In this document: positions 4,069 to 55,721 of the stretch, piece by piece | How positions within the stretch are numbered: position 1 is the first letter of the stretch | Layout: each line of letters begins with the position of its first letter | DNA from: a virus | Taxonomy: Duplodnaviria > Heunggongvirae > Uroviricota > Caudoviricetes | Direction: 5' to 3' (one strand) | DNA: 64,000 nt | Virus record (IMG/VR): IMGVR_UViG_3300028800_000066 | Coordinates: 8,207 to 72,206 of that record | Position numbers and translations under genes: made by a program | Notes under the pieces: model-generated | Told to the model about the DNA's origin: nothing | Database searches by the model: none | What the model saw: the letters and a program-made list of their open reading frames with translations, nothing else

Positions 4069-4175
4069 TTATATTTTTCACCCCCTTTTTTGTATAAGAT
4101 AGCCTCGGCCTAGATGAGGCAAATTGTCCTCGATAACTCAATCAAGAATTACCGAGGATTTTTATAACTTATTTC

Positions 4176-6083: not shown

Positions 6084-6105
6084 TGTTGTTCTCCTTGGGA
6101 TAGTG

Positions 6106-6849
6106 TTATCGAGTAACACGTTTATTTTTATTTTCAGTTATTCTTTTACATATATTTATAAAATCTTTTTCTATAAACTTGTTTTTCATAATGTTAACAG
6201 TTTTATGGACCCACTGAATGTTATCTTTTGTATATCCCTTGGAAGAATCAATTCTATCTAGTGATGCAGTAGTTGTGTTTTGCTCTTTTTGTGTTTTTGA
6301 AAAACTTATATCCATGTCGCTTAAAGCACATTTTCTATTTTGTTTTTCAAAAAGCTCCCAAGCATCTTGAATTGTGATTCTAAATTCCAATTTCCTAATT
6401 TTCGCGCCATGCTTTATAACATTCCAAAAACTTCCAGATATTCCTTCGTAACCGTTCCATTTATGCGAATGAATATTTGGTCCCGTTTTACAAAGACATC
6501 CACAACTTTTCGTTAGCCCCTGTAAAACACTGCCAACTTTTGTTTCAAAAATTTTCCCACAAAAACATTTTATTTGTACTTTTTGTCTTGTGTTTTTAAA
6601 TTCTGAAAGAAGTTTTAATTTTCTATTAGAAAACTTTTTTATAACTTCTTCTTGTTTTAATTTCTGTTTGCATCCACAACTTCTAGTCAAACCAGCGAAG
6701 ATGCTTTGAGGCAGTGTTTCAAATGTGTTACCACAAAAACACTGCACCTTAACTTTTTCTCTAGCTGATTTGTAATCTGACAAAAGTTTAAAATTTCTCT
6801 CAGAAAACCTTTGTTCAACATCGTTTAGAGTAATTGCATTACCATGCAT
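6106..6849 (-). CDS. HNH homing-endonuclease-like protein with duplicated zinc-ribbon
   Basis: Two internal repeats CFCG..F(E)T..(S)CGC. C-terminal SLDRIDSSKGYTKDNIQWV..N motif typical of phage HNH_3 endonucleases. Sits between structural genes with its own promoter. Confidence 0.55.
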   Translation of the reverse strand: MHGNAITLNDVEQRFSERNFKLLSDYKSAREKVKVQCFCGNTFETLPQSIFAGLTRSCGCKQKLKQEEVIKKFSNRKLKLLSEFKNTRQKVQIKCFCGKIFETKVGSVLQGLTKSCGCLCKTGPNIHSHKWNGYEGISGSFWNVIKHGAKIRKLEFRITIQDAWELFEKQNRKCALSDMDISFSKTQKEQNTTTASLDRIDSSKGYTKDNIQWVHKTVNIMKNKFIEKDFINICKRITENKNKRVTR

Positions 6850-7044
6850 CTTAGCTCTCCCTTTAGTAGATTGATATAAGAATTTACATATTTTTAATGT
6901 TTATTCTTACTTATACTAAAGAAAAAAATATAAGATTTTGCATGTTTTTTTCAATTTATTTCGGTGTGGTTAACAGGTTTTTAAGGTTTACAGTTTTTGA
7001 GTTGATACTCAATATTTGATTGACAAATTTGTTTTAACGGCTAT

Positions 7045-7076
7045 ATTATATCAAAAACACTATATTTTATATAGGT
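7045..7076 (-). promoter_or_regulatory. candidate extended -10 promoter (TGaTATAAT) for HNH gene
   Basis: rc reads TATATA-17-TGATATAAT in the 230-bp intergenic region upstream of ORF 6106..6849. Weak -35. Confidence 0.4.
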
Positions 7077-7078
7077 TT

Positions 7079-7504
7079 TTATTCGTAATGTGGCGTATTT
7101 TTTGTAGCAAACTCACCCTTATAATCTTCAATCATAACTTCGTGAGTTCCCTCTCCATTTACACTACTTAATTCATTAGATTCAAAAGGATATTTAATTT
7201 CAAGTTCAGCTTTTAATTTTTCAGCTTCCTCTTGATTGGCAACCGGAAAAGATAATTCCTCATCCCCACCGGATTCCTTAACGGCGATGGCATATCTGTC
7301 ATACCACCATCCACCTTCTTCTGGTCCACCATAACATCTCTCTACCCAATACACAGTTACATGCAAAGGATTCTCGCTGTGTGCATCTCGAAAATCTCGT
7401 GCGTCTTCTTGAGCTAACTGTTCCTCTTCCCAAGCGGCGGCATCATCCTGACCTTCGGTTGGGTCAAAAGCCTCATCATCGAATTGAGAAAATTTTAACT
7501 TCAT
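7079..7504 (-). CDS. acidic hypothetical protein
   Basis: 141-aa ORF on the coding strand. Confidence 0.5.
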   Translation of the reverse strand: MKLKFSQFDDEAFDPTEGQDDAAAWEEEQLAQEDARDFRDAHSENPLHVTVYWVERCYGGPEEGGWWYDRYAIAVKESGGDEELSFPVANQEEAEKLKAELEIKYPFESNELSSVNGEGTHEVMIEDYKGEFATKNTPHYE

Positions 7505-7506
7505 AA

Positions 7507-8949
7507 TTATGCCTTCTTTTGTAAATAATATTTAGTTGCGGCTCTGCTCAATTCCTCTTTAAACTTCAATTCTTTGCTGTTCAATGTTTCATCTTTTTCT
7601 TTCAATCTCTTTCCAAGTGGACCCGCTGGACCTTCCTTGGCACTCTTCTTATAAGCCTCTTCTTCTAAATCTCTTGAGGTCTTACCATCGGTGCCTTGAA
7701 TCTCCAACTTTTCATTTGGATAAATCATTTCCTTATTCTTTTTTCCTTCTTCGAATCTATCATTAATATATCCGGTCATGTTGGGGTCGAATACTTGGTT
7801 GTTCAAATAAGCTGTAGTTGTCTTTCCTTTGTCTGAAGATACAATCAATTCAGTTGTATCAACATTCTTGTTCAACAACTCAGCTACAGCATTCTCAATG
7901 CTTTTAATTCCACCAGCAGAAATCTGGTCTGCGGCGGAATCTTCAAGATTCAAATGCCAAGCCTGTTTATCTTGAGAATATGCTGTCCATTCGTAGTCTT
8001 TCTCGTTTAGAGTTACGCTACCGTTAGCCTTGTAATCTTTCCAGGTCTTACGATATGTTAACTGCTTGATGTCAATTTTAATTCTTAGCATACTTGATAC
8101 CACCTTTACGTTATCATTCTTGCGATTTGCTCTAATGTCAGTTGCACATTCTGTTCCCTTACACTGAGCATCTTCATGCATCTTCAACAAGTTTTCTGGA
8201 ATTAATGAATCGGCTAATTTTGTTTGTCTATCTCCATCAACAGCCTTCTTCAATGAAGCTATTTTCTCAAGAACATTAGCTTCTCTGAAAGCTGGTACAC
8301 CGACCCAAGATAATTCAATAAACTCAAGGTCGTGGTTGACTTCGTGAATGGGCCATGCCCCAAACTTATGTTCGGAATTATTTGTGTACATGCTCATTTT
8401 CATACCCTTGTAACCAGCGATGTGGTCACAATATTCACGGTCTGTTCTTGCGATGTTTCCGCAAACAGAACATTCCGACCAACCAACACGAGTTCCCATT
8501 GAAACGGAATTTACCATTCCAGTTTCAATATCTCGGGCCAACTGTGGATGAGACTTTTTATCTACGGCGATTAAACACTCGACACATCCATCATCTTCGT
8601 TCAAGAAGGCATCAACGACCAATCCTCTGATTGCATTTAAATCATCTGATTTGTGGTCCAGGAAATTACCCTTACCAATAAATGATTGATAGGATGCTCT
8701 TAATTCTTTCATTGGGAATCCATCACCATTCTGGTTTGGTCCCCAATTTTCCAAGCTTCCAATAGCTCTTGTTCTGATATACATAAAATCATGTGAAAGA
8801 GCTAAACTCTTTTTGAACTTAGCTACTTTTGTTTTGAACTGAGCAATAGCAATCTTCGAACCTTCTGAAGAGCCAGTTTGAGATTTTACGGTATCAAAAT
8901 CTTCAGCCTGCTCCAAGAATTGTGCTGTGGCAAATTTAGTAAAAGACAT
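7507..8949 (-). CDS. hypothetical morphogenesis-block protein (480 aa)
   Basis: Large ORF between the scaffold-like and capsid-proximal genes. Function not recognisable. Confidence 0.5.
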   Translation of the reverse strand: MSFTKFATAQFLEQAEDFDTVKSQTGSSEGSKIAIAQFKTKVAKFKKSLALSHDFMYIRTRAIGSLENWGPNQNGDGFPMKELRASYQSFIGKGNFLDHKSDDLNAIRGLVVDAFLNEDDGCVECLIAVDKKSHPQLARDIETGMVNSVSMGTRVGWSECSVCGNIARTDREYCDHIAGYKGMKMSMYTNNSEHKFGAWPIHEVNHDLEFIELSWVGVPAFREANVLEKIASLKKAVDGDRQTKLADSLIPENLLKMHEDAQCKGTECATDIRANRKNDNVKVVSSMLRIKIDIKQLTYRKTWKDYKANGSVTLNEKDYEWTAYSQDKQAWHLNLEDSAADQISAGGIKSIENAVAELLNKNVDTTELIVSSDKGKTTTAYLNNQVFDPNMTGYINDRFEEGKKNKEMIYPNEKLEIQGTDGKTSRDLEEEAYKKSAKEGPAGPLGKRLKEKDETLNSKELKFKEELSRAATKYYLQKKA

Positions 8950-8950
8950 G

Positions 8951-9835
8951 TTATTTCCCCTTTATGCTTTTTAGAGCTTGCAATCTAGATTCTCTCTTCA
9001 TCTTTGTGTTCATGATGAAGGCAGGAACTTTTCCTAAAGGTTTTGGAGTAGCTGGCTGTGGTTTGGTCTTCGAAATGGGTTGTGCGGCCCCTGCTTCCGG
9101 AGTGGCTGGAGAGCCAAGTGCTTCTTCTGCTAAAGCCGTATCATCTGTTTCATCTTTCTTATCCGCCTCATCAGCTTCTTCATGTTGGTCTTCAACCAAA
9201 TTAGGGAGTTCATCTTCTTTTCTTTTCTGATAGGCTTGAAGAGCCGGACTCAACTCATTCTTTTCTACAATAAGATAATCGCGTTCCATTGGAAAACCTT
9301 CTTTCCAAGTTTCCTGCATCTTATCTAAATCTTTTTCGGCTTCAATCTTTGATTTGTATCCACCGATTATATTTTCACCAATGCCTTGTTCTCTGTTCAC
9401 GCCAAACATTGGACCCTGAATTCCGTAAGTCTTTCCAGTCTTGGAATCTGTATATTTAATATAGCTCGACTTGTCATCGGCATCTTCAGGAGAAAGATGT
9501 TGCTCGTTCTGTAGTTTATCTGACATGTCAGTATCCAACTCAACAACGAACTGAGTCCACTCGTCACGAATATCCGCAGGCTGATTGTCTGGAGTAGCTA
9601 GAATGTTTTCAGCATTTTGTTCTTGGTCTGACATATTATCTGGATTGCCCTGACCTGGAGGTGGGGTGTTCACATTTCTGTTTGCCGTGTCTCCACCCAA
9701 ATCTTCTTCTGTTCCATCGCCAGCGGCAAAGTGCTTGATAAAATCATTATAAATTTCTACTTCAGAATTTTCTGGGAGCAAAAATCCTAGAGCATTTTTT
9801 AAGTGTGTATTTTCTCTCTCATAAAAATTAGACAT
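8951..9835 (-). CDS. acidic Pro/Gln/Asp-rich protein (scaffolding-like)
   Basis: Composition and position downstream of the putative portal. Start ATG overlaps the stop of the small Zn-ribbon ORF (ATGTCTAA). Confidence 0.5.
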   Translation of the reverse strand: MSNFYERENTHLKNALGFLLPENSEVEIYNDFIKHFAAGDGTEEDLGGDTANRNVNTPPPGQGNPDNMSDQEQNAENILATPDNQPADIRDEWTQFVVELDTDMSDKLQNEQHLSPEDADDKSSYIKYTDSKTGKTYGIQGPMFGVNREQGIGENIIGGYKSKIEAEKDLDKMQETWKEGFPMERDYLIVEKNELSPALQAYQKRKEDELPNLVEDQHEEADEADKKDETDDTALAEEALGSPATPEAGAAQPISKTKPQPATPKPLGKVPAFIMNTKMKRESRLQALKSIKGK

Positions 9836-10007
9836 TATTGTTCTCCGATATCGAATTTACGTACCCACACTTATGACATTCAATGTCACCATGTCTAGTC
9901 TTAAGCATATTTAATGTGGCCCCGCACTTTTCACATGTTTTATCAACGATGATTTCGACAATCTCGTTCATCTGTATGTTAGAAATTGCCTTTTTATAGA
10001 AAGCCAT
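9828..10007 (-). CDS. small zinc-ribbon protein (59 aa, missing from the 60-aa ORF track)
   Basis: MAFYKKAISN...CEKCG...CHKCG. GAGGA RBS 6 nt upstream. Translationally coupled to the downstream gene. Confidence 0.4.
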   Translation of the reverse strand: MAFYKKAISNIQMNEIVEIIVDKTCEKCGATLNMLKTRHGDIECHKCGYVNSISENNNV

Positions 10008-18763: not shown

Positions 18764-19621
18764 TTAATTATTGGGAAGGTTTGGGTCAGGATTGACTTCA
18801 ACTTCCACAATATGTTCTTGCGTATTTTCATTCGTATCATCTCTTACATCAGCTTCCACATCTTCTGGAGTCGGTAGAGATGTTGTTATATTAATTGTTG
18901 TATCAGAACCGTTATTTATTTCAATCTTAAGTCCAGAACTTACGCCAGCACTTACATCAGCTTTGGCGGCTTCCTCTCTCATGATTTCCCAAAATCTTGC
19001 AACCTTGGAAGCATCAATTTCCATCAAAATTCTTTTTATTGCATTCTTAACAATATCACTTTCTTGTTGAGCCTGATTTATATTGATGGTTGTGTTTCCA
19101 ATTGCTTCTTTCTTGGCCCTATCTAGGGAATCTGTATAAGCTTTAATGAATGAATTACTAGCACTTTCGGCACGACCAAGAAGCTTTTCCAACACTTCAT
19201 AATTTCTTGGGATGAAAACTGCTCTTCCCTGGTCATCTACTGTCTGCTCCTTTATAAGCTTGACAGCATTCTCGGTCTCTGTTATAATTTGCTTGAAGGA
19301 GTTCACTACATTATCAACTTCTTCTTTTTGTTTGTTCTTAGCATCTATAAAATCCTTGGCGGCTGTGAAAGTCGTTAGGACATTAGCATCATGAGTTTTA
19401 CCAAGAGCTAGGAATTCATTTCTTTTTTGATTAATAGTAAGTCTATCTAGACCAAGAATGTTCTTTCTATAATACTGCAAAGAAACCTTAGAGGTCTGTT
19501 CTCTCTTGTCTTTTCTAGTTTGTCTTAACCAAGCGGCAACTTCTTCGGCGGTATGTCCATTATTGAACATTTCATCGATTTGCGGCTTTGCTGGATGTGA
19601 AATTACTGACTCGCCTAACAT
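18764..19621 (-). CDS. coiled-coil hypothetical protein
   Basis: ORF, coding strand. Confidence 0.5.
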   Translation of the reverse strand: MLGESVISHPAKPQIDEMFNNGHTAEEVAAWLRQTRKDKREQTSKVSLQYYRKNILGLDRLTINQKRNEFLALGKTHDANVLTTFTAAKDFIDAKNKQKEEVDNVVNSFKQIITETENAVKLIKEQTVDDQGRAVFIPRNYEVLEKLLGRAESASNSFIKAYTDSLDRAKKEAIGNTTININQAQQESDIVKNAIKRILMEIDASKVARFWEIMREEAAKADVSAGVSSGLKIEINNGSDTTINITTSLPTPEDVEADVRDDTNENTQEHIVEVEVNPDPNLPNN

Positions 19622-25325: not shown

Positions 25326-25721
25326 TTAACTTAGCTTTATTTCTTTCAAAACTTCTTGAATCTTAGGGTCTTTAGCGCAGGCTTTTCGTAATCTTGCGAA
25401 TGCTATGTTCAATCTGGAATGCACAGCTTCTTGAGTTATAGACAAAATCGAACCCATATGTTCTTGTTTTTTGGATATTAAATACAAATCTATAACTTCT
25501 TGTTGTCGTTTTGTAAGGCAAGTATTGAATTTTTCCCTTATCAATCCTAGCAATTTCGCCTGCAACTCATCCAATTTCTTTCTTCTGTCTTCTTCTTCCA
25601 TCGGGTCTTTGGCTGTTTTATTCTTAAAACTATCCTGCATATCTTGAGGTGGCATCAGCTTCACCCTGTAGGTCCATTGCTGATTGTCATGTTCCTCTTT
25701 AGACATTTCTCTTCTTGGCAT
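25326..25721 (-). CDS. sigma-70 region-4-like HTH protein (small sigma or anti-sigma-like regulator)
   Basis: C-terminal LSITQEAVHSRLNIAFARLRKA resembles the sigma70 region 4.2 HTH. Confidence 0.5.
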   Translation of the reverse strand: MPRREMSKEEHDNQQWTYRVKLMPPQDMQDSFKNKTAKDPMEEEDRRKKLDELQAKLLGLIREKFNTCLTKRQQEVIDLYLISKKQEHMGSILSITQEAVHSRLNIAFARLRKACAKDPKIQEVLKEIKLS

Positions 25722-26547
25722 GTTGGTTTACCGCCTTTGGCAAAATTTGTCTTCGTTGTGCTTGTAGTTTTGAATCTTCACTTTGTTCTTTAACAGTCTT
25801 TAGAAATTCTTCCTTTCCATATTTTCTTATAAATTCATCAGGGTCTTTCGCACCCTTGAGTACAATCAAAAAAACCTCAACTTCTTTATTGAGCCTTATA
25901 TTTAGAACATTGTTCTTTTCACCAACAAAGAAGTTGGCGCTTCTTTTATTAAAACTAGCCATCGCTTTCCTACCACCCTCATCGTTATCAAATATTAGAT
26001 ATATTCTTGAGGTATATCTTGAAAGCAAATTGTAGTGTTCTTTTGTAAAAGCTGTTCCCTGGCAACCAACAGTATTTTCTAATCCCACTGTATGGGCAGT
26101 GATTACATCAGCATTTCCCTCATACACATAAGCTTTGTTTAACTCACGAATCATTCTTATGGCAAAATTCAATCCGTAAAGATATCTACCTTTATCATAG
26201 GCAGTATTAAAATACTTCGGTTTGTCATCTGCAAGAGTTCTTCCGGTAACAGCAATTAATTTACCATGAGTGTTCCAGACAGGAAAAATCACTCTGTTAT
26301 AAAGAAAGGTATTTCCCTTCTCATTCATAACACGAGCGTCTAGCAAGTCATCTTTGTCATATCCGCGCTTTAACAAAGCGGCAAACAATTGTGAATTTTT
26401 ACCTTGGGGAAAGAATCCCAGCCGCCATTTAGCAATAATTGTTGAATCCCAACCGCGACTGAGATAATAGTCTTTCGCTGTCTGTGTTAAATTTTTATCA
26501 GTAAATTCTACGACAGCATCAAATACGCTTTTCGTAATTAATGGCAT
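25699..26547 (-). CDS. DNA primase (TOPRIM domain, DnaG-like)
   Basis: EGNADVITAHTVG...IYLIFDNDEGGRKA (TOPRIM E...DxD motifs). Confidence 0.6.
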   Translation of the reverse strand: MPLITKSVFDAVVEFTDKNLTQTAKDYYLSRGWDSTIIAKWRLGFFPQGKNSQLFAALLKRGYDKDDLLDARVMNEKGNTFLYNRVIFPVWNTHGKLIAVTGRTLADDKPKYFNTAYDKGRYLYGLNFAIRMIRELNKAYVYEGNADVITAHTVGLENTVGCQGTAFTKEHYNLLSRYTSRIYLIFDNDEGGRKAMASFNKRSANFFVGEKNNVLNIRLNKEVEVFLIVLKGAKDPDEFIRKYGKEEFLKTVKEQSEDSKLQAQRRQILPKAVNQHAKKRNV

Positions 26548-27128
26548 TACCCTATTTCGATGTGAATGAATGTTGATGGGATAAACTTACAAAAATATTT
26601 GTCGGAATCTTTGTTATAATGGAAGAAGATATTGTTTTTAGAAGCCTTCTCTGCATTCACATAAACAACAACATTTCTGCCACTAGGCAATTTGGAACGA
26701 TTGTCTACCAAGCCAAATTGAACTGCACTAAATTGAAGTCCGCCTTTAGACACATTGAAAAAATCATTTTTATCAATGCATCCAAACAAATCTTTGGGTG
26801 TCTTCTCGATTCTTTCAAAAGATTCTGGAACATTCAGGTTTAAAATGACAGTGTGACCAAACTTCGCCTTGACCTTCATTCCATCGAAATAGAATAAATT
26901 CGCCGCATACTTTTTGGTCACACTAATCAATTCATCTTGAGTAAGCTTAAGCTTAAAGCGTTTATCGATGGACGATAAAACCTTAGTAGTTTCGGCGTAT
27001 CCATCTTGGTCCAGGGTAAGACCAGCAACTTTAGGCTTATGCCTTAATACGAACACCATAAAGCGACAAATGTTTTTGTATTTATCGACTAAGCTCTCTG
27101 TGGTGCCAATCTGTTTATTTTTATCCAC
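26547..27128 (-). CDS. hypothetical protein
   Basis: ORF. Confidence 0.5.
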   Translation of the reverse strand: MDKNKQIGTTESLVDKYKNICRFMVFVLRHKPKVAGLTLDQDGYAETTKVLSSIDKRFKLKLTQDELISVTKKYAANLFYFDGMKVKAKFGHTVILNLNVPESFERIEKTPKDLFGCIDKNDFFNVSKGGLQFSAVQFGLVDNRSKLPSGRNVVVYVNAEKASKNNIFFHYNKDSDKYFCKFIPSTFIHIEIG

Positions 27129-27782: not shown

Positions 27783-27811
27783 ATTATAGCAAATTTCTGG
27801 CAATTTGTCAA
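27783..27811 (-). promoter_or_regulatory. consensus sigma70 promoter P5 (TTGACA-17-TATAAT)
   Basis: rc: GGTTGACAaattgccagaaatttgcTATAATgt, 25 nt upstream of the HNH gene start. Confidence 0.7.
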
Positions 27812-29177: not shown

Positions 29178-29369
29178 TTAAGCCTCTGCAACTTTCTTGA
29201 AATTCTTCAAAAAATATTCATACGCGCTCTCATTGACTCTATTTTCACCTTCATAACTCCAGTATACGGTGAAGCTATAGACATCAACTCTTTGAACAAT
29301 AACGTCAGGACGATTAATAATGTTAATTAATCTCCACTTTTGTCCATTCTTAATCTGCGTCTCGTCCAT
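29178..29369 (-). CDS. hypothetical small protein
   Basis: ORF. Confidence 0.35.
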   Translation of the reverse strand: MDETQIKNGQKWRLINIINRPDVIVQRVDVYSFTVYWSYEGENRVNESAYEYFLKNFKKVAEA

Positions 29370-30234
29370 TTACTTTAGCGTCTCGGAAATCATAGCCACC
29401 TTCGCGTCTTAGCTTCAAAAAGGCTCTACGCAACTTCTCAAGCGCCCTCTCTTCAATTTGCCTTACACGTTCAGAAGTAGTCCCAACAACCTCTACAATA
29501 TCCTTCAAGGTCATTAGATTATCTGAATCACTGAAATATCTAAGGACAATAATTTCACGTTCCCTATCATTAAGCTTTTCGTAAATGATTCCCAAAAGTT
29601 GTTCCCGATTTATCTTGTTGATAACAACCTGTTCCGGAGTCGGCTGAGTGTCACGAATGACATTCAACAATAAAGGCTTTCCATCCGACTTGTCACCATT
29701 AGCTTCCTGATGAATGCTGATGACCTTAATTTCAGTCATCACATTGTCGTTATCAATATACTTTCTCTTAAAAGTCTCGCTCTGGAAAAGTTTGTTCTTC
29801 AAGAATTCTGAATTGCTTGATTCGTCATCAAGGTCCAGAATCTCTCTGTATTTCTTATAGGAATAGTTCATGAATTGAACGTTCCTGGGTACAGTCACAA
29901 CAGACCTCTGGCAACCTTCAAAAATGTATTTGTAAACCCAATAGAAAAGATAGGTAGAAAAGGCAGTATCCTTTTCCAAATCAAACCTGTCTAATGCATC
30001 GAAGAATCCAAGAACACCATTCTGAAAGCAATCATCGGGGTCAGTATACATCTTAGAAAATTTCATAGAAATCTTCTTGATATAGCGAATATTGTTAAGG
30101 AAGATTTTCTCCCTTAAAACAAGCTTCTTCTCTTCATCAACTTCAGCCTTGTAAGCTCTGATTAATTCTCTGACTTCATCCTTGGAAATGAAATCTTGAG
30201 AAAGCTGGTCGTGAAGTATTTTGTTTTCTGACAT
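29350..30234 (-). CDS. sigma-70 family RNA polymerase sigma factor
   Basis: Region 2 (DDCFQNGVLGFFDALDRFD...YLFYWV) and region 4 (REREIIVLRYF...LKDIVEVVGTTSERVRQIEERALEKLRR). Start moved to MSENK (GAGGA RBS). Confidence 0.65.
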   Translation of the reverse strand: MSENKILHDQLSQDFISKDEVRELIRAYKAEVDEEKKLVLREKIFLNNIRYIKKISMKFSKMYTDPDDCFQNGVLGFFDALDRFDLEKDTAFSTYLFYWVYKYIFEGCQRSVVTVPRNVQFMNYSYKKYREILDLDDESSNSEFLKNKLFQSETFKRKYIDNDNVMTEIKVISIHQEANGDKSDGKPLLLNVIRDTQPTPEQVVINKINREQLLGIIYEKLNDREREIIVLRYFSDSDNLMTLKDIVEVVGTTSERVRQIEERALEKLRRAFLKLRREGGYDFRDAKVNGRDAD

Positions 30235-30241
30235 TCTATCC

Positions 30242-30661
30242 TCAGAAGGTAGAGTCGTGTCTGTTTGAGAATTTCTTTCCATCTTTATAACCCAGCGCAT
30301 ACATTTGGAGTGTATTCTCGGCTAGTGATTCGAAAATATAATAGTCGTAATCACCATTGCTTGCCAATTCATACGCCTTGTCATAGAATGCCAAAACGGT
30401 AGCATCTACAGCAAGGTCGTTAGTTCCTCTGTATGTATCAATCTTTTCTTTAATCTGTGTGGCGTGATTTTTGATGTCTCTTTGATTTTCTAGCTCAACA
30501 TCTTTTGCGATGGAGTAGATTATCTTATCTTCTCTATACTTAGCATGATTCAATTGGATTTGCATGTATCCCACATATCCAACCAAAAAAGTGAGTAAGA
30601 GTATTGTGGGTGTTATAGTTTTCTTCCATTTCCTGAGCACTAGCTTGAGTCTGTAAAGCAT
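30242..30661 (-). CDS. hypothetical membrane-anchored protein
   Basis: N-terminal TM helix. Confidence 0.4.
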   Translation of the reverse strand: MLYRLKLVLRKWKKTITPTILLLTFLVGYVGYMQIQLNHAKYREDKIIYSIAKDVELENQRDIKNHATQIKEKIDTYRGTNDLAVDATVLAFYDKAYELASNGDYDYYIFESLAENTLQMYALGYKDGKKFSNRHDSTF

Positions 30662-30725: not shown

Positions 30726-30995
30726 CTACGCCTTTTTAGAAACCCAATTAATAAATCCAACAACCTTCTCGTGGGTTAACAGTTTTTCTAAGGTGTTATA
30801 ATTTTGAGCTAATTCTTTTTCAGTCATGAAGTCATGAATAGCATCATGGCAATCTCTGCAAATCTCAATTGTTTTAGACTTCATTTCCTTATTAGAATAT
30901 CTTTTCTTGAAGTAACTCTTGCTCCACATTGATTTGCAAATCAAGTGGTGCGTAGTGAGTGCTCTTTCTCTTTTACATAATTGACAAGCTAACAT
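30726..30995 (-). CDS. small HNH/zinc-binding protein
   Basis: C..C...HHLI...CRDCHDAIH pattern. Confidence 0.45.
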   Translation of the reverse strand: MLACQLCKRERALTTHHLICKSMWSKSYFKKRYSNKEMKSKTIEICRDCHDAIHDFMTEKELAQNYNTLEKLLTHEKVVGFINWVSKKA

Positions 30996-31010
30996 TATTT
31001 ACCTTAATTG

Positions 31011-31359
31011 TGGAGGCGGTGGGAATCGAACCCACGTCCAAACAACTTTCCAAATTCAATCTACGTGTGTGTTCGGTTTTGCAGTCCGACAACTGTATTC
31101 GTTTTGTCCGTTTCGTTTTCATCTTAGCAGGGCAGAGTTATAACTGTCAGACTAATAAACTCTTACACTGAGCATCCTAAAGCGGCTCTGAAATTCACAC
31201 CTATAGGAGTCGGTGGTCAGAGTAGTCGCTATTAAGCGGCTAGTAGTTCCATTTCTTCGGCATTTCAATTTGTCTGCAAAGGTTTTTAGAGGGCCTTCAC
31301 GACAACTCCCTCACACGCATGAATGTTGTACTGTTATCTGTCGAAACCAAGTCGCCCCC
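31011..31359 (-). ncRNA. ssrA: tmRNA (SsrA)
   Basis: 5' GGGGGCGACUUGGUUUCGACAG. 3' tRNA-like end GGACGUGGGUUCGAUUCCCACCGCCUCCA. Internal tag reading frame ...GCC GAA GAA AUG GAA CUA CUA GCC GCU UAA UAG (AEEMELLAA). Confidence 0.8.
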
Positions 31360-31387
31360 AAGAGGGTATTACCTTTCTTTCACTTCG

Positions 31388-31461
31388 AGCAAGCGGTGGG
31401 ATTCGAACCCACGAATAACGGTTTTGCAGACCGTCCCCTTAGACCACTTGGGTACGCTTGC
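31388..31461 (-). tRNA. tRNA-Cys (GCA)
   Basis: Cloverleaf with GGTTCGAATCC T-arm (read from rc). Anticodon loop CTGCAAA. Confidence 0.8.
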
Positions 31462-31496
31462 ATTTGGGGGAGTTTCCTCCCCCAAGTATTTCTTTA

Positions 31497-32686: not shown

Positions 32687-32740
32687 CGTACCCTCATGAG
32701 TTATCTAACTGTTGAATTATACCACACTTCGGCTTGTTTG

Positions 32741-33259
32741 TCAAGACCACCAGCTTTGAACCTTTTGTCTCACATCGTGGAACACTTTATCGTAATCCGC
32801 TTTTTCTCGTTCTTCCATCAATTTCAGGATTCTGTCTCTTTCTTTTTCGGCTTTCTTGTTAATGGGTTTCCATTTATTCCCATACTTTTTATCGTATGCA
32901 TCCCATTCCTGTCTACAATAATCGTTGTCATGTTTTAATCTATGTATGGCATCCCTAACTTCTTGAATCTCTTTGGCGTAAATAGGACCAGACAAAGTTT
33001 CATCCGTTTCGCTCACCTGATGATTCGGGTCATTCTGTAAGACGTTCTGTGTTCTAGAAAGTTGATAATCCATAACTTCCAGAACATCAGTGCCCTCCCA
33101 ATCTCTAAGACTCCACAGAGTAGGAATCCAACGAATGATGCTCCATACCTTCTGACATGGAATTTCAACCATATCTTCGAATGGTTCATAAATGAAAGCA
33201 TCTAACCATCCATAGGTTTCTATTCTATATTTCTTATGAGCAATCCATCTTTGGAACAT
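32741..33259 (-). CDS. hypothetical protein
   Basis: ORF. Confidence 0.5.
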   Translation of the reverse strand: MFQRWIAHKKYRIETYGWLDAFIYEPFEDMVEIPCQKVWSIIRWIPTLWSLRDWEGTDVLEVMDYQLSRTQNVLQNDPNHQVSETDETLSGPIYAKEIQEVRDAIHRLKHDNDYCRQEWDAYDKKYGNKWKPINKKAEKERDRILKLMEEREKADYDKVFHDVRQKVQSWWS

Positions 33260-38347: not shown

Positions 38348-38579
38348 AGTCTAATACTGGCTTGCTTACAGCTTCTAACATTTTTTCAATATCATACTTT
38401 AAATCAGAAACCTCTTCTCCCGTCATTTCTACAGAGTTTTCAGAGATTCCGTTGGGATTTCCATCCTTATCATACCATACTGTGTGAATGGCAAAATAAG
38501 TATAACCATCAGGATAAATCTTGTTTAATGATTCAGCGACGGGTTTGTTACGCTTGATTAGTCTGTAATTCCATCCCAT
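38280..38579 (-). CDS. hypothetical protein
   Basis: ORF. Confidence 0.35.
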   Translation of the reverse strand: MGWNYRLIKRNKPVAESLNKIYPDGYTYFAIHTVWYDKDGNPNGISENSVEMTGEEVSDLKYDIEKMLEAVSKPVLDYAIFEEMEKKHAPVESDNRSDS

Positions 38580-39687
38580 TTTTTCCTCGTTTGAAATTAC
38601 CGACCTTATAGGCCAATTGTAATTTCCGAACTTCTTCCTGTTCCTCTTTGCTGAAACTCAATCCAGCTTTCACAGCGTAACGTAATTGATTGTTGAAAAG
38701 ATTTCCGCACGTACTTTCTGAAATGCTTAAAGTTTTTGCGATTTCAGGATAACTGAATCCCTTTAGAATCATTTCTCTAGCTGAGCGAATAATCTCAATC
38801 GAGAATTTTTGTTGAGCCTTAGAAAGATTATCCAAATTCGTGTCACTAATCCTTCTCTTAGCAAGAGAAATGTTGGCTCTTGCTTCTTCCGAGAAAACGC
38901 GGCCATTATTGTTTCTTCCATTACAAGACAAGTTCTCATCCAGATTTTCTGTGTGCATGAGAATACGCAATCTACGGAAAGCTATAAAAGTGATTTGACG
39001 AGCACGTTCAGTTGTCAATCCCATCACAACAGCCATTTGCTTATAGGTTTTGTGATTAAAATAGTATTCTCGGATTGCCATGCGTTCCTTGATGGTTAAC
39101 TTATTGTTGATTACCTTGATAAGCTTCGTCCGTAAATCTTTATCATCTAACTCTTCTGCCAAGTTATCTTCAATCTCAACAGTCTCATTATCCGGAATCA
39201 CATCGTTATAAGAACGATTAGTCCCATCATCAGAAAGCAAGGGAGCGTTTAGATAAATCAACCTATCATTCATGTGAGCCCTGGCTTCTTCCTTATGATT
39301 CTCATAATCACCAGTAGGAATTTTCAGGATGTGATTAGCTCTCATGCAATGTTGCATCTTCTGATTAATCCAGTATGCGGAATAAGTCAAGAATTTAAAC
39401 TTACGATTAACTTTAAACTTTTCAAGACTATGCATAAATCCGATAACGCCAGCATTAAAGAAATCATCAACTTCGATACTGGGATTAATCCGGTGAAAAC
39501 GATGTGCTTGTTTACGAATAAAACGAATATGATTCTGGAAAATTAATTCTCTGAATCTATATTTGTCATCTTCGTTCTTAGCACTTTTATATTGTTTAAT
39601 CAATTTAAGAATCTCTGGATACTTTAAAACCTTCTGCTTAAGCAGAAAAATCATTTCAGGAGATTCTTTACTGGTATCAAACGACAT
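38548..39687 (-). CDS. sigma-70 family sigma factor with extra C-terminal HTH
   Basis: Region 2-like FNAGVIGFMHSLEKF...YSAYWINQ. Region 4-like ERMAIREYYF...MAVVMGLTTERARQI. Additional SYPEIAKTLSISESTC HTH. Confidence 0.6.
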   Translation of the reverse strand: MSFDTSKESPEMIFLLKQKVLKYPEILKLIKQYKSAKNEDDKYRFRELIFQNHIRFIRKQAHRFHRINPSIEVDDFFNAGVIGFMHSLEKFKVNRKFKFLTYSAYWINQKMQHCMRANHILKIPTGDYENHKEEARAHMNDRLIYLNAPLLSDDGTNRSYNDVIPDNETVEIEDNLAEELDDKDLRTKLIKVINNKLTIKERMAIREYYFNHKTYKQMAVVMGLTTERARQITFIAFRRLRILMHTENLDENLSCNGRNNNGRVFSEEARANISLAKRRISDTNLDNLSKAQQKFSIEIIRSAREMILKGFSYPEIAKTLSISESTCGNLFNNQLRYAVKAGLSFSKEEQEEVRKLQLAYKVGNFKRGKNGMELQTNQA

Positions 39688-41470: not shown

Positions 41471-42325
41471 TTATTCAAGATGTTCAACTACACTTCTCAA
41501 GATTTTAGCGGTGGTCTGTCTCAAAGTTCTGTGATGTTTAACCACGCCATAACCATGATACTCTTTATTCATTTCAATCAAAAGCTTGTGAGCGGCTTCC
41601 CTATCTGGACCATGAGGAAGTTGAGTCTTTGTATAAAGTTCATCACAAAGAGCTTCGAGCCTTTTTGCTTCTTCTAGAAAACGTTCCTTGCTCCATTCAC
41701 CCTTTTTGACGGTTAGAACAAGCTGGTTTTCTTTTAGAGGAAGCGTGATTTTGCCAGTTGACAAAAGCTCATTAGCCTCAAGATACAATCTAAGAGCGTG
41801 AGAAGCCATCTTAGTATCATATCCAAACTTCTGAATCAATTCTTGTCTTCCACTTCCATTATCTTCGCCACGCTGTAGTCTCTGGACCTGAGTGTGGCTA
41901 TAACCTTTAAAGCTGTGATAGCTTTTCTTGGACAAGAAGATTTCTTTGTTATCAAAAAGCTTCTGCCCTAGAGGATGTACGTATAACCTGCAATTCTCCG
42001 GAACAAATAATGTTTCTAAAGTATTCGGATTGTTATTTAGAAGCAATTCCATAAACTTTGGAAGTGCATACAATGTGCAATCCATATCAGCGGAAGTATT
42101 CTTCTTTCCAGAACCCGTATCGTTGGTTCTGAATTCTACCTGTTCGATGTTCTTCAATCCCAAAAGATACTCTTCGTCAGGCATGAATACACCAACAAAG
42201 TCCTGGTCGCTCTTGCCTGGGATATTGGTTCCATACATGACCGACCCAACACGTAGGAATAGCAAGCAGTTTTCGACTGCCATCTTCCTCTCGACTGTGT
42301 TTTGTAGAAGTTCTGTATGTTTCAT
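41471..42325 (-). CDS. Pol-beta superfamily nucleotidyltransferase
   Basis: GSVMYGTNIPGKSDQDFVGVF (GS...[DE]xD nucleotidyltransferase signature). Driven by consensus promoter P1. Confidence 0.55.
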   Translation of the reverse strand: MKHTELLQNTVERKMAVENCLLFLRVGSVMYGTNIPGKSDQDFVGVFMPDEEYLLGLKNIEQVEFRTNDTGSGKKNTSADMDCTLYALPKFMELLLNNNPNTLETLFVPENCRLYVHPLGQKLFDNKEIFLSKKSYHSFKGYSHTQVQRLQRGEDNGSGRQELIQKFGYDTKMASHALRLYLEANELLSTGKITLPLKENQLVLTVKKGEWSKERFLEEAKRLEALCDELYTKTQLPHGPDREAAHKLLIEMNKEYHGYGVVKHHRTLRQTTAKILRSVVEHLE

Positions 42326-42354: not shown

Positions 42355-42383
42355 ATTATATCACAAATCTAAAAATTTGTCAA
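42355..42383 (-). promoter_or_regulatory. consensus sigma70 promoter P1 (TTGACA-17-TGaTATAAT)
   Basis: rc: gcTTGACAaatttttagatttgTGaTATAATagc. Confidence 0.75.
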
Positions 42384-44687: not shown

Positions 44688-44700
44688 GATTACCTCTCGG

Positions 44701-44788
44701 TAGTCGTGTAGGGAATCGAACCCTAGTTAGGCTGTCATCTACAGCTAGGAGTTTATAAGGCTCCCTCGGTGCCACACCTCGCACGACC
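44701..44788 (-). tRNA. 88-nt type-II tRNA with anticodon loop CTTATAA (TAT, Ile AUA, by canonical fold), identity uncertain
   Basis: Good acceptor and T arms. 22-nt variable arm with gctgt/acagc stem. AC stem has a C-A mismatch. A73. Confidence 0.5.
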
Positions 44789-46554: not shown

Positions 46555-46642
46555 TGACCAAGGAGAGATTCGAACTCTCACGCCCATTACAGGCAACGGT
46601 ATCTAAAGCCGTCATGTCTACCTATTTTTTCATCACTCGGCC
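46555..46642 (-). tRNA. type-II tRNA, probable Leu (TAG) with oversized D-loop
   Basis: Acceptor ggccgag/cttggtc (2 G-U). AC stem acggc/accgt with loop TTTAGAT. Variable arm tgcctgtaatgggcgt. Fold less certain than the others. Confidence 0.45.
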
Positions 46643-47533: not shown

Positions 47534-47562
47534 ATTACTTAGGTATTATATCACATTCCCAT
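47534..47562 (-). promoter_or_regulatory. consensus sigma70 promoter P2 (TTGACA-17-TGaTATAAT) for tRNA/ncRNA array
   Basis: rc: ggcTTGACAaatttatgggaatgTGaTATAATacc. First genes downstream are tRNA-Arg 47436 and the 520-nt element. Confidence 0.75.
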
Positions 47563-47595
47563 AAATTTGTCAAGCCCTTTTATCGTTTCATAATG

Positions 47596-50169: not shown

Positions 50170-50556
50170 TTACCAATCCAATGTTCCAGCATTAACACAG
50201 GCTACACCAAAAACAGCGCCAACAGCTACATCCAATAACTCTGCCTTGAAATGAGTTTTGTCGTTTTTATGTAAAGCTTCCATCATTTCACGATGTTCTT
50301 CATCTACTACACCAGCGATTTCGTGAGTTGAAGCAAATGTTCCATAACCTTTTTGTTTAAGTCTACGATTAAGTTCTAATCTGAATTCCATAACAGCTTG
50401 TTCAATTTGTTCTTGCGTAATTTCCAGTCTAGCATTAGCCATTTGTTCTCCACGCGCAGGAACTTCCATGTCCGAATCCAGTCCCGCCATAAGGGCATCA
50501 ATTTCGCTCTGACTTAATATATCGTCCACTCTATGCTCTGAGAAGATTTCGCTCAA
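50170..50556 (-). CDS. MazG-like all-alpha NTP pyrophosphohydrolase (putative)
   Basis: ASTHEIAGVVDEEHREMMEAL...ELLDVAVGAVF acidic helix pattern. Confidence 0.45.
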   Translation of the reverse strand: MSEIFSEHRVDDILSQSEIDALMAGLDSDMEVPARGEQMANARLEITQEQIEQAVMEFRLELNRRLKQKGYGTFASTHEIAGVVDEEHREMMEALHKNDKTHFKAELLDVAVGAVFGVACVNAGTLDW

Positions 50557-51550
50557 CGGCTTGACCGTGCATCCAATGTTTCACGGTCTGGATGTGATTC
50601 TTTCTCACATATTTAGCCGCAGACTTTCTAAAATCACCGTATGAAAACTTGTCAGCAATTCTGATTACATATCCTTCTTTGCTCTGCCAATTTTCTTTGT
50701 TGTACAAAGCTTTAATTTTTGTCTCATCATAGATTCCATCATACAAAACTGGAACGCTTTGGATGTTCAAAAGATTAAACCAAGAAGCCGTATCATCCCA
50801 ATCCAGGCATTCGTTCTTTTCATTCCAAACCGAGAATCCCATGAAATAGGTGGGGAGATTATCGTAGCCAATTGAGTGTTTGGCCCAAAGATTCTCACCG
50901 CAGACTCTCCAACCTTCGGGGATATCGTTAGCGATTGCCGCCCAAAAGTTCTTTACCCAATTTCTAGAAACATGAGTGTCACTGTTTATACTTCTTGCAT
51001 GGATGTGGTCACGATACATTGTCGTGTTTTCTCCATCCATTTTTTCTGTAACAATAACTCTTTTACCTTCAAAACTTTTCATGTTCTCAATCATGCGGTC
51101 ATCATCGTTCATGTTTTCCGACCAAGGAACATGGTATGTTCTAGGATATTTTACATAACTGGTAAACTGTCCGAGAACATCAGCTAAAATCTTTTGGACG
51201 CTCAAATCGTAAAACAACTCACCTTTAAGTCTTTGACCATTGGGAAGAATAATGTTTCCCCATTTATCGTAAGTCTGGTCGTGATAGAAATGTTCTGGAA
51301 GAACTGGTTTAGTAATTCCGCACTTCTCACGAACTTGTTCCACAGAAATATTGGTCTTTTCACATTCAATGTGATGTTCTTCGCAAACCGAAGCGCCATT
51401 GTTTAGAAAATAACCGCCATTTCCCCAAATCCTACGTTCAATTATATGGTGTGCATCTGCCGCTGGTTCTCCACAAAATACGCACTTATGACCATCTCTT
51501 TTGAAGACGCCCTCACGGAATTCATCACGAGTGAGCAATTTGGATTCCAT
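50531..51550 (-). CDS. HNH nuclease fused to ATP-dependent RNA ligase-like nucleotidyltransferase
   Basis: N-terminal CVFCGEPAADAHHII...CEEHH. Ligase motif I TEKMDGEN (KxDGxN), motif IV EGYVIR, motif V AAKYVRK. Confidence 0.55.
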   Translation of the reverse strand: MESKLLTRDEFREGVFKRDGHKCVFCGEPAADAHHIIERRIWGNGGYFLNNGASVCEEHHIECEKTNISVEQVREKCGITKPVLPEHFYHDQTYDKWGNIILPNGQRLKGELFYDLSVQKILADVLGQFTSYVKYPRTYHVPWSENMNDDDRMIENMKSFEGKRVIVTEKMDGENTTMYRDHIHARSINSDTHVSRNWVKNFWAAIANDIPEGWRVCGENLWAKHSIGYDNLPTYFMGFSVWNEKNECLDWDDTASWFNLLNIQSVPVLYDGIYDETKIKALYNKENWQSKEGYVIRIADKFSYGDFRKSAAKYVRKNHIQTVKHWMHGQAVERNLLRA

Positions 51551-53244: not shown

Positions 53245-53273
53245 ATTATATCACATTTCGCTCTATTTGTCAA
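53245..53273 (-). promoter_or_regulatory. consensus sigma70 promoter P3 (TTGACA-17-TGaTATAAT) for Asn tRNA array
   Basis: rc: ggcTTGACAaatagagcgaaatgTGaTATAATcag. Confidence 0.75.
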
Positions 53274-54017: not shown

Positions 54018-55721
54018 TTAACCCTTGATGAAGTCACTCATCACGGCTGGGGCAGATGAATCGAATCCTACCACGTCTAACATTCCAGCATCGTTAGGGT
54101 CTGCAATCGTGAAATCATTCGTAACCATACCAACCACAACTGACTTGGCATTGTTACTAGACTGCTTGCGATATTCTGCAAGAGCCTGATGTGGGTGAAT
54201 TCTTCCAGCATAAGTCTCGTTATCGGTGTAGACAAAGAAAGCATCTACATCTAACTTATTCTGCTTTGCATAAACCATCGGCAAAGAGCAATCAGTTCCA
54301 CGGAAAGGAAGATTATTGATGACTGAGATTACATCATCCAATCTCTTCTTTCCAGAAATGTTCAAGTCAATGAACTCTGTCGAGAATCCCTTGATATAGA
54401 CGTTCTTCTCAACCTTTGCAGTAACCATTGCCATAGCCGCGCTTACCACTCTTGGCGTAAGACCTGGAATACCAGAAATTGAACCGCCGTCCATTGAACC
54501 AGACACGTCCAAGGCCAACATGATGTTCTTTCCAGTTGGCTCAACATTATCAAATGCTGTGTAGAAAGCAGAATCCAATGCGTCCACAACTGTCTGGACC
54601 GGAGTCCAGGAATTTCCACCACGCTCACCGTGACCCTGCTGATAAACCTTCAAGGCCGACAATAACTGAATCGGATGCACTCTCGCCTTCTTCAAAGCCT
54701 CTACATTAGCAAGCTTTTCAGCGACAAGCTTTGAACCCTGTGAAAGCGGTGCAATCAATCCAACTCTTGTCATTGTTGCAATATTACGAATCATTGCAGT
54801 CAATGGCATGTGCGGAAGTAATGCATCCCACACTTCAATGGTGTTAAGTAACTCTGTAGGAACAGCTTCACGAGGAAGTTCGTGTTCTCTAATCAATCCA
54901 ACAATTTCAGAAGCAGTCGTTGCCCTCTGAGCCTGTTCGAAAGCATTAATCATCGGGTGGATATTGACGATAAGCTTTCCTTCATTGTCATAGTGCGACT
55001 TTACCCATGACTGAATCTGCTCGTGCTTCTCGGAATACTTCACCTTTGCCGAATCGTTCTTGGCAGAGACAGGGGCATCCTTACCAGCCTTATACTTATT
55101 CCACGCAACCCACTGATAGATATCATTACGTGCGGCATCAGCGGTCTTCAAGTGAGCAAGACGCAACGCATCACGATGTTCAAAACCTTCACGATTACGA
55201 TACTTAATAACCTGTAATGCAAGGCCATCCAAGTTCTTCTCGTTATACCAACGCTGAACTGCCTTACGCAATCCAGTACCAGTTCCCTTGCCAATGGTGT
55301 CCGCAATCGACAAGAACTGGAACAAATGTGTGGCGATTCTGCATACCTTTGAAAGGTTCTGATATGCATACGCACGAGTAGCCGCATCACCATGCTTTAC
55401 GACAAGCGCAAGAGCAAACACAGCGGGGTCATTCTTTGGAGCGCGACCATTGTGAGAAATTTCCACAATAGTATCAACAGTCTTGCGACCATTTTCCTTC
55501 ACGCACTCCAAGATGCACTTCGCACTGTCCTGTGTCATCTTGTGCTCGGATGCATAATACGAGCCACCCTCGTTTCCAAGAATCAAGAAACGGTTTAAAC
55601 GGGTCCAGTTGTCTACCTTGAATGTAAAGCCACCCGCGCTGTTTGGAACCTGATTGCTTCCGAATACCTTCTCGGACTGGGGTGTAACCTTAGTTGAAAC
55701 GTGCGAAGCATAGTTTGACAT
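54018..55721 (-). CDS. vWA-domain protein with Ro60/TROVE-like architecture (Rsr-like, inferred)
   Basis: C-terminal vWA MIDAS LALDVSGSMDG...T...D. About 400-aa helical N-terminal module. 567 aa matches the Ro60 size and domain order. GGAAGAGGAG RBS. Own consensus promoter. Confidence 0.5.
   Translation of the reverse strand: MSNYASHVSTKVTPQSEKVFGSNQVPNSAGGFTFKVDNWTRLNRFLILGNEGGSYYASEHKMTQDSAKCILECVKENGRKTVDTIVEISHNGRAPKNDPAVFALALVVKHGDAATRAYAYQNLSKVCRIATHLFQFLSIADTIGKGTGTGLRKAVQRWYNEKNLDGLALQVIKYRNREGFEHRDALRLAHLKTADAARNDIYQWVAWNKYKAGKDAPVSAKNDSAKVKYSEKHEQIQSWVKSHYDNEGKLIVNIHPMINAFEQAQRATTASEIVGLIREHELPREAVPTELLNTIEVWDALLPHMPLTAMIRNIATMTRVGLIAPLSQGSKLVAEKLANVEALKKARVHPIQLLSALKVYQQGHGERGGNSWTPVQTVVDALDSAFYTAFDNVEPTGKNIMLALDVSGSMDGGSISGIPGLTPRVVSAAMAMVTAKVEKNVYIKGFSTEFIDLNISGKKRLDDVISVINNLPFRGTDCSLPMVYAKQNKLDVDAFFVYTDNETYAGRIHPHQALAEYRKQSSNNAKSVVVGMVTNDFTIADPNDAGMLDVVGFDSSAPAVMSDFIKG

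Follow-up and report, generated by a model that had tools for sequence, protein, structure and literature searches.

We analyzed a stretch of 64,000 nt from a virus of the Caudoviricetes (IMG/VR record IMGVR_UViG_3300028800_000066, positions 8,207 to 72,206), in the following called the window, to which all coordinates refer unless another contig is named. From this analysis, we conclude with good confidence, though short of certainty, that the window holds a working, phage-borne gene for transfer-messenger RNA (tmRNA; the ssrA gene). Judged from an alignment with its relatives, the lineage keeps the parts of this tmRNA through compensatory changes, which points to selection on both the fold and the encoded message. 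The likely benefit to the phage is extra ribosome rescue capacity during infection.

The Rfam tmRNA model RF00023 matched the minus strand from 31359 to 31008 with 116.7 bits (gathering score 47, E 6.2e-45) and spanned model positions 1–374 end to end, without truncation. The initial annotation, made from the letters alone, had described a complete SsrA at 31011–31359 without naming the strand, and had proposed the Rfam model and ARAGORN as checks. The full-length match bears out the completeness, and the annotated span runs exactly from G1 to the discriminator A, on the minus strand. No permuted-model match was found at the locus; being colinear with RF00023, the gene encodes a one-piece and not a two-piece tmRNA (RF04321 and related models). 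ARAGORN listed 41 tRNAs in the window and did not call the tmRNA, because its encoded 3′ end lacks CCA. The gene and its parts, with pseudoknots abbreviated PK and their two stems S1 and S2, are arranged as follows.

31008–31359, minus: tmRNA (ssrA) gene, 352 nt as matched by RF00023
31353–31359, minus: acceptor stem H1, 5′ strand GGGGGCG, 7 bp with CGCCUCC (31012–31018)
31313–31340, minus: helix H2, 5′ strand (H2a–c), pairing with 31039–31068
31272–31312, minus: PK1; S1, GAGGG (31308–31312) with CCCUC (31289–31293); S2, GUCGUGAAG (31295–31303) with CUUUGC-GAC (31272–31281)
31232–31261, minus: tag frame; resume codon GCC (31259–31261), stop UAA (31232–31234), followed by a second stop UAG (31229–31231)
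31222–31243, minus: H5 hairpin; the tag frame ends within it, and its loop contains the stop codon
31175–31222, minus: PK2; two-tier S1, CUCUGA-CCACC (31212–31222) with GGUG-UCAGAG (31186–31201); S2, loop UCCUAU (31203–31208) with UUAGGA (31175–31180)
31106–31170, minus: PK3; S1, 31160–31170 with 31128–31137; S2, loop GUCUG (31148–31152) with CGGAC (31106–31110)
31073–31095, minus: PK4; S1, CAG (31093–31095) with CUG (31082–31084); S2, UCGG (31086–31089) with CCGA (31073–31076)
31039–31068, minus: H2, 3′ strand
31019–31035, minus: T-arm, GUGGG / UUCGAUU loop / CCCAC, 5 pairs
31008–31018, minus: acceptor 3′ strand CGCCUCC (31012–31018), discriminator A (31011, A349) and tail CAA (31008–31010)

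Relatives were found through homologues of the sigma-factor gene that lies about 700 bp downstream of the tmRNA (29350–30300, minus), whose identities grade from 93% down to 49%. In every contig that included the upstream flank, a tmRNA was present at the same position beside the sigma-factor gene, giving homologues in eight related metagenomic phage contigs: L023, L024 (identical in L025 and L026), L027, L028 (identical in L030), L029, L031 (also found in L032), L033 and L034. These tmRNAs score 105–125 bits with Rfam. The neighborhood is conserved as a block of sigma-factor, HNH, Tpt1 and primase genes. In L023 and L027, as in the window, a tRNA-Cys gene precedes the tmRNA. The alignment of the nine sequences has a mean column identity of 78%, and the aligned relatives are 61–77% identical to the window copy.

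On this alignment we tested a structure composed of H1, H2a–c, both stems of PK1, H5, PK2 S2, both stems of PK3 and PK4, and the T-arm, with PK2 S1 treated separately. Standard pairs occupy 95.2% of 681 cells, compared with 84.3% in shuffled alignments, none of 500 of which reached 95.2%. When the 3′ partners were slid by one to three columns, only 30–47% of the cells paired. Changes on both sides were seen in 36 of the 76 pairs versus 21 expected from the shuffles, and every tested helix except the invariant H2c segment contains at least one compensatory pair.

The tRNA-Ala-like end that the initial annotation had recognized from a G-U at the third acceptor pair can be read directly from the sequence: G3·U70 (31357 paired with 31014) is invariant in all nine aligned sequences, and the acceptor pairs next to it show compensatory changes. 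The domain further comprises the discriminator A, a D-loop analogue (UGGUUUCGAC) and the T-arm, which is 100% paired with compensatory changes in two of its five pairs. Below it lies the long helix H2 with 20 pairs in three segments (92.6–98.4% paired, nine pairs with compensatory changes). PK1 precedes the resume codon; its S1 (five pairs) is 100% paired, with a G:C to A:U swap in four sequences accounting for one covarying pair, and its S2 (nine pairs) is 98.8% paired, with five compensatory pairs. An RNAalifold pairing of columns 50–52 with 143–145 was replaced by this fully paired S1. The six pairs of H5 are 90.7% paired.

PK2, PK3 and PK4 follow 3′ of H5, an arrangement that is typical but not universal among tmRNAs. 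For PK2, the six pairs of S2 are 88.9% paired with one compensatory change. The MAFFT alignment is inconsistent at S1, which was checked sequence by sequence; most sequences form the two-tier fold, with differing inner stems (CACC/GGUG, CCUUU/AGAGG, CCCAC/GUGGG and CUUC/GAAG). In PK3, seven of nine S1 pairs and four of five S2 pairs show compensatory changes, with three sequences one column out of register in S2. PK4 S1 is 100% paired, including an A:U to G:C swap in three sequences, and S2 is 97.2% paired, with compensatory changes in three of four pairs. A competing 11-bp long-range helix, joining tmRNA positions 208–218 and 266–276 in the minimum free energy fold of the single sequence, was rejected as the main fold. 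It has weaker alignment support (84.8% paired, covariation 0.242, reached in 16 of 500 shuffles) than the set of PK3 S2 and PK4 (90.7%, 0.532 and 0 of 500). The invariant CAGUU/AGUUG core of this helix could mark an alternative conformer.

The mRNA-like part reads GCC GAA GAA AUG GAA CUA CUA GCC GCU UAA UAG, that is AEEMELLAA and two stop codons in the H5 loop, exactly the tag of about AEEMELLAA with an LLAA-UAA-UAG ending that had been annotated. The tags of the lineage are:

window copy: AEEMELLAA
L023, L024 and L031: ANEELELLAA (lineage consensus)
L027: AEDEQLLLAA
L028, L029 and L034: ANEELLLAA
L033: NEEMELLAA (probable; a 3-nt deletion shifts the resume codon to AAC)

ARAGORN independently called ANEELELLAA, AEDEQLLLAA and ANEELLLAA in the relatives. 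All length differences in the frame are multiples of three, and the substitutions are mostly synonymous changes at third positions (GCC/GCU/GCA, CUA/CUU/CUC/UUA, GAA/GAG, AAU/AAC). Three features never vary within the lineage: A at both −4 and −3 relative to the resume codon, L-A-A at the C terminus of the tag, and a stop located in the H5 loop. This substitution pattern is as would be expected for a translated frame.

The encoded 3′ end is A-CAA instead of A-CCA, a detail that the initial annotation had missed. It resembles the phage's own tRNAs, 33 of the 41 in the window lacking an encoded CCA (only eight encode it) and most ending in discriminator-C-A/G-A, so the missing CCA is not disqualifying. 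Among the relatives, CCA is encoded in six aligned copies (five distinct sequences), whereas L033 ends in CAA and L024 in CUA. ARAGORN found the tmRNA in every CCA-encoding relative and missed the three copies without CCA (window, L033 and L024). From the likeness to the tRNAs we infer a maturation logic common to the array, with trimming to the discriminator and CCA addition; the mature RNA is accordingly predicted to end at 31011 with CCA added post-transcriptionally. No gene for a CCA-adding enzyme was seen among the window open reading frames (ORFs), and the host enzyme is presumed to act on the tmRNA.

The CAA end might instead be taken as a sign of decay. The ssrA gene is a frequent integration site of temperate phages, which often carry a 3′ piece of it, and the gene in the window could be a recently captured bacterial ssrA or an attachment-site remnant without function for the phage. 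In a blastn search of the tmRNA against GenBank phages, only two 37-nt matches in the T-arm and acceptor region were found, of which the one in a cultured Streptococcus phage is such an unannotated fragment. We consider this explanation very improbable. The gene in the window is full length, its compensatory changes and intact tag extend across relatives whose sigma factors share 49–93% identity, CCA-less ends are normal for the tRNAs of the window, and no integrase was seen among the window ORFs. A close bacterial donor was also absent from 185,579 species genomes. The lineage-specific H2c/PK1 signature, GCGUGURAGGGA...ACACACGUAGA, had a single match among them, L035, a real bacterial contig from an uncultured gammaproteobacterial metagenome-assembled genome (MAG), with a chromosomal tmRNA at 7343–7706 (minus) and the tag ANTDAESVALAA. 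Since it shares only universal cores with the lineage tmRNAs, L035 was rejected as a recent donor and gives at most a hint, a distant one, to the source of the phage tmRNA.

The tmRNA is phage-encoded, as annotated: the same contig carries genes for a major head protein (phrog_2522, 277 bits), portal, head maturation protease and large terminase, and a single strand carries 89 of the 98 window ORFs. In ENA, the window falls within a contig of 110,230 bp (adding 44,567 to a window position gives the contig position), from a genome apparently of about 120 kb or more. Its G+C content is ~39%, and stop-codon use is standard and UAA-rich (TAA 53, TAG 8, TGA 7). That the gene belongs to a bacterial chromosome or a chimeric assembly has in its favor that the source is a metagenomic contig and that one related contig type occurs in NCBI MAG assemblies. 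Besides the phage structural genes, the absence of bacterial housekeeping genes, the independent assembly of the same phage and arrangement in many samples and the synteny around the tmRNA in the eight related phage contigs make this explanation scarcely credible.

Cultured relatives are absent. Megablast of the tmRNA region against GenBank phages gave zero DNA matches, and the terminase reaches at best ~32% identity to cultured phages. In IMG/VR, an exact search with the 30-nt tag stretch gave zero matches, no relative of the tmRNA-adjacent sigma factor was found, and the tmRNA was absent from the neighborhoods of homologues of the SPFH gene upstream of it (L002–L010).

The ORFs directly flanking the tmRNA vary. 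A small HNH-like zinc-finger ORF (30726–30995, minus; weak, E 0.009) starts 13 nt past the tmRNA in the window, whereas a LAGLIDADG-like ORF is found in L027 (4407–4847) and a Pyr_excise ORF, resembling T4 endonuclease V, in L024 (4792–5295) and L033 (4803–5240). Their resemblance to mobile nuclease and repair genes hints at homing-endonuclease turnover around the tmRNA.

For transcription, the following elements are of interest.

31387–31461, minus: tRNA-Cys (GCA), found by ARAGORN and Rfam; the final tRNA of the array, separated by 27 nt from the 5′ end of the tmRNA, which follows as the last element
32716–32744, minus: promoter TTGACA-N17-(TG)TATAAT, a 12/12 match to the sigma-70-type consensus
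27783–27811, 42355–42383, 47545–47573, 53245–53273 and 62220–62248, minus: other perfect promoters
19260–19288, plus: perfect promoter
29350–30300, 38548–39687, 59167–59739, 59741–60253 and 25326–25721, minus: at least five sigma-70-family genes, one of them a weak region-4 match

Perfect TTGACA-N16–18-TATAAT promoters occur seven times in the window, all with N17, compared with 0.06 expected, and an extended form, TTGACAAA...TGTGrTATAAT, is common to the six that lie on the coding strand. Going upstream from orf77, the SPFH gene, tRNA-Cys and the tmRNA, the first consensus promoter is that at 32716–32744; tRNA-Cys and the tmRNA are probably transcribed together. A promoter of this type ends 44 nt (L028–L030) or 57 nt (L034) before the first base of the tmRNA in four relatives. 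These promoters suggest that the primary sigma factor of the host is canonical and that the tRNA region contains a set of strong, probably early, transcription units. The tmRNA itself would then probably be transcribed strongly and early in infection by the host primary-sigma RNA polymerase. The number of sigma-factor genes suggests a phage sigma cascade for middle and late transcription. Between the SPFH stop codon and tRNA-Cys lies a perfect 11-bp GC-rich palindrome, GGGGGAG-UUUC-CUCCCCC (31462–31487), and the coding strand has no U-run there. The palindrome could serve RNA processing or attenuation before tRNA-Cys and the tmRNA.

Trans-translation also requires SmpB, and the initial annotation had proposed looking for a phage smpB homologue. 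None was found in the ~84 kb covered (the window and 10 kb on each side). There were zero Pfam matches to SmpB (PF01668) among the window ORFs and none in the precomputed Pfam lists for the 10 kb beyond each window end, and phmmer with Escherichia coli SmpB against six-frame translations of the window and the fetched loci gave best E-values of ~0.5–1, which is noise. The RNA therefore most likely relies on the host SmpB, together with the host alanyl-tRNA synthetase (AlaRS) and EF-Tu.

A tmRNA that must share the host SmpB could also act as a competitor or hijacker of host trans-translation, mainly titrating SmpB or replacing the host tag without adding rescue capacity. The phage might gain from blunting a tmRNA-dependent host response or from altering the fate of tagged proteins. 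A precedent is the mycobacteriophage DS6A molecule consisting of the tRNA-like domain only, proposed to be a tmRNA inhibitor through SmpB titration (PMC4131195). The strong promoters suggest high expression, and the first half of the tag (A-N/E-E-E-L/M-E) is acidic, unlike the AANDENY part of the tag to which SspB binds in E. coli. Titration, however, needs the tRNA-like domain alone, whereas here selection keeps the message, the resume context, H5 and four pseudoknots, and the canonical LAA end is kept as well, marking productive tagging as the conserved activity. Competition with the host system is thus unlikely.

For a working tmRNA, we propose the following course of events. Host RNA polymerase would transcribe the gene early from the consensus sigma-70-type promoters, together with tRNA-Cys. 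RNase P would cut the 5′ end, and the 3′ end would be trimmed to the discriminator before a CCA-adding enzyme supplies CCA. Host AlaRS would charge the RNA with alanine via G3·U70 and the discriminator A73, and host SmpB and EF-Tu would deliver the charged RNA wherever a ribosome has stalled at the 3′ end of a broken or stop-less mRNA. Translation would resume at GCC and append (A)AEEMELLAA, in which the C-terminal L-A-A is similar to the degron that ClpXP recognizes in bacterial ssrA tags. After termination at UAA, the ribosome would be recycled and the truncated protein degraded through its LAA end. Extra ribosome rescue may pay off while mRNA fragments accumulate, be it from phage-driven decay of host mRNA or from host defense RNases. 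The suggestion in the initial annotation that the tmRNA keeps translation running against mRNA-cutting RNases is plausible and fits this context.

Several points weigh against a working tmRNA. The RF00023 alignment of PK2–PK4 in the window sequence is poor, with low posterior probabilities. The initial annotation, which had not verified PK1–PK4, had named failure of the covariance model on the pseudoknot region as its refutation; the model does align PK2–PK4 poorly, but the covariation within the lineage supports all four pseudoknots. The poor alignment reflects divergence in sequence, with the structure present. The single-sequence fold is no more stable than shuffled sequences (z = −1.3), which is usual for pseudoknotted RNAs. 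As CCA is not encoded, the RNA would be inert in a host lacking a CCA-adding pathway, although the CCA-less tRNAs of the phage itself speak against such a host. Compatibility with the host SmpB, AlaRS and ClpXP is assumed, a phage smpB could lie in the other ~34 kb of the 110-kb contig or beyond the contigs, and the benefit to the phage is read from context only.

This context is rich in translation and RNA-repair genes:

31387–63985, minus: tRNA array, continuing in the overlapping contig L038 at 603–9980 (L038 9892–9980 = window 63897–63985)
L038 8896–9882 and L039 686–1672 (the window's own contig): RF2, ~120 nt beyond window position 64000
L038 955–1317: L7/L12 homologue (TIGR00855 80.2 bits, cut-off 84.4; Pfam Ribosomal_L12)
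61073–61354, minus: CspA-type cold-shock protein (CSD 92.9 bits; coding start probably the ATG near 61276)
54018–55721, minus: Ro60/Rsr orthologue (TROVE and Ro60 vWA; phrog_850)
26547–27128, 41471–42325, 50531–51550 and 62987–63610, minus: RNA-repair genes for Tpt1/KptA 2′-phosphotransferase, RlaP nucleotidyltransferase and two RNA ligases

To the 41 tRNAs called by ARAGORN in the window, at least 23 are added beyond its right edge, including Met (three), Phe (two), Tyr, Val (three), His (two), Gln (four) and Ile-GAU (two). The total of at least 64 (65 with an Rfam-only tRNA at 46555–46642) covers all 20 amino acids, with many anticodons served by diverged duplicates, and is close to the highest counts reported for huge phages. 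No suppressor tRNA was seen in this set, and stop-codon recoding is not indicated. One tRNA-Ile called by ARAGORN (44699–44788, minus) is unusual in its length of 90 nt and its anticodon UAU at position 32; it was not among the matches of the Rfam tRNA model at the gathering threshold.

RF2 exceeds the NCBIfam prfB cut-off (411.9 versus 370 bits) and has the SPF and GGQ motifs; its match begins at profile position 33, and it may lack the usual frameshift-regulated leader. The L7/L12 homologue lies within the tRNA array beside three tRNA-Met genes, ~8 kb past RF2. A spurious plus-strand ORF (61055–61594) overlaps the CspA gene. The Ro60/Rsr orthologue scores 519 bits with NCBIfam Rsr, below the equivalog cut-off of 900. 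Bacterial Rsr acts with Y RNAs; none was found beside the gene at the Rfam gathering threshold or with E up to 1, but the tRNAs nearby could conceal a divergent one that resembles a tRNA. Of the two RNA-ligase-family genes, one is clear (PF09414, 113 bits) and one weak (24.6 bits, KLDG motif). The context of tRNAs, CspA and repair genes noted in the initial annotation is thus real, and Ro60/Rsr, Tpt1, the ligases, RlaP, RF2 and the L7/L12 homologue make it larger; if anything, that picture of heavy investment in translation was understated.

A narrower form of the favored explanation is counter-defense, in which the tmRNA would be one arm of a coordinated island, together with the tRNAs, Tpt1, the two RNA ligases, RlaP, Ro60/Rsr, CspA, RF2 and the L7/L12 homologue, that protects the phage from host ribotoxins. 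Damage by anticodon nucleases would be made good by the repair enzymes and the spare tRNAs, and ribosomes caught on mRNAs cut by toxin or abortive-infection RNases would be freed by the tmRNA. The genes of the block lie on one strand over ~47 kb from Tpt1 to L7/L12, with tRNAs interspersed and the same consensus promoters, the tRNAs for many anticodons are diverged duplicates, and the Tpt1 and HNH genes hold their positions near the tmRNA in all relatives. All of this is contextual, however, and the gene set could also serve general autonomy in translation, a match to codon usage or a wide host range; Tpt1, ligases and Ro60 are also present in many phages without tmRNA. We therefore regard specialization for counter-defense as possible but not probable.

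To place the working tmRNA proposed here among known systems, we compared it with bacterial and phage examples. Features in common with bacterial one-piece tmRNAs are the acceptor stem with G3·U70 and the discriminator A, the T-arm and D-loop analogue, a long H2, PK1 ahead of a GCN resume codon that has A at −4, a tag of about 10 codons ending in LAA, a stop in the H5 loop, and PK2–PK4 after it. In contrast to these, the window tmRNA is encoded by a phage, with the 3′ CCA not encoded and no smpB found beside it or elsewhere in ~84 kb, PK4 is small (3 + 4 bp) and PK2–PK4 are divergent in sequence. The E. coli SsrA tag is ANDENYALAA; the lineage consensus ANEELELLAA has the same length and shares the first two and last three residues. 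The two differ in the middle, which is DENYA in E. coli but acidic and aliphatic (EE-L/M-E-L) in the phage lineage.

That tmRNA is uncommon in phages, as stated in the initial annotation, agrees with a census finding it in 402 of 18,146 phage genomes, or 2.3% (PMC9004378). Phage ssrA genes have been listed for Bxz1-type mycobacteriophages and Bacillus phage G (PMC4131195), Momo carries 34 tRNAs and one tmRNA in 154.5 kb (PMC4472892), and huge phages encode tmRNAs and sometimes SmpB too (PMC7162821). Phage tmRNAs are therefore already documented, and the window copy adds a lineage without a cultured relative.

The cluster C mycobacteriophages (Bxz1, Cali, Catera, Rizal, ScottMcG, Spud and Momo, among others) and Bacillus phage G are large, lytic-type phages that likewise combine a tmRNA with dozens of tRNAs, and Bxz1 encodes a Ro-like protein. 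The window phage has no detectable sequence relationship to them. Mycobacteriophages are high in G+C, in contrast to the window phage, whose tRNA complement of at least 64 is about twice as large and is joined by RF2 and the L7/L12 homologue. Like the tmRNAs of huge phages (PMC7162821) and of Melnitz (PMC9004378), the window tmRNA is accompanied by a release factor and tRNAs; the roles proposed for those, in maintaining the hijacked translation machinery or in tagging proteins for recycling, would apply here too. Some huge phages carry an SmpB, in contrast to the window phage as far as covered. The tmRNA of the Melnitz type, from a marine myophage, is two-piece (permuted) and tied to a glutamine riboswitch, whereas the window tmRNA is one-piece and without a riboswitch. 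Four IMG/VR viral tmRNAs (L018–L021; Rfam 137–174 bits) have the same acceptor and D-analogue (GGGGGCGAnnUGGUUUCGAC) and T-arm as the window copy and short tags ending in AA (AKTELIAA, ATPVRLAA). With ~65% mean column identity, unalignable PK2–PK4 and different neighborhoods, they represent another lineage.

Although phage tmRNAs have been catalogued from the Bxz1-like mycobacteriophages onward, we know of none with an experimentally shown role. The locus described here adds comparative evidence of selective upkeep: compensatory changes in nearly all helices, a protected tag frame and, in several relatives, the tmRNA's own promoter. Censuses of phage tmRNAs used ARAGORN (PMC9004378, PMC7162821), by which copies without CCA are missed; they probably undercount such genes, because ARAGORN missed all three CCA-less copies in this lineage.

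More speculatively, the tmRNA may belong to one co-regulated kit of ~47 kb for the survival of translation, comprising at least 64 tRNAs, the tmRNA, RF2, the L7/L12 homologue, CspA, Ro60/Rsr, Tpt1, two RNA ligases and RlaP, all on the same strand and preceded by identical consensus promoters, that evolved against host defenses cutting tRNA and mRNA. If so, the phage would supply a rescue RNA of its own since host trans-translation would be overwhelmed or itself targeted in abortive infection. The block is unusually dense for the size of the phage, which makes it a good candidate for finding out why phages invest in ribosome rescue.

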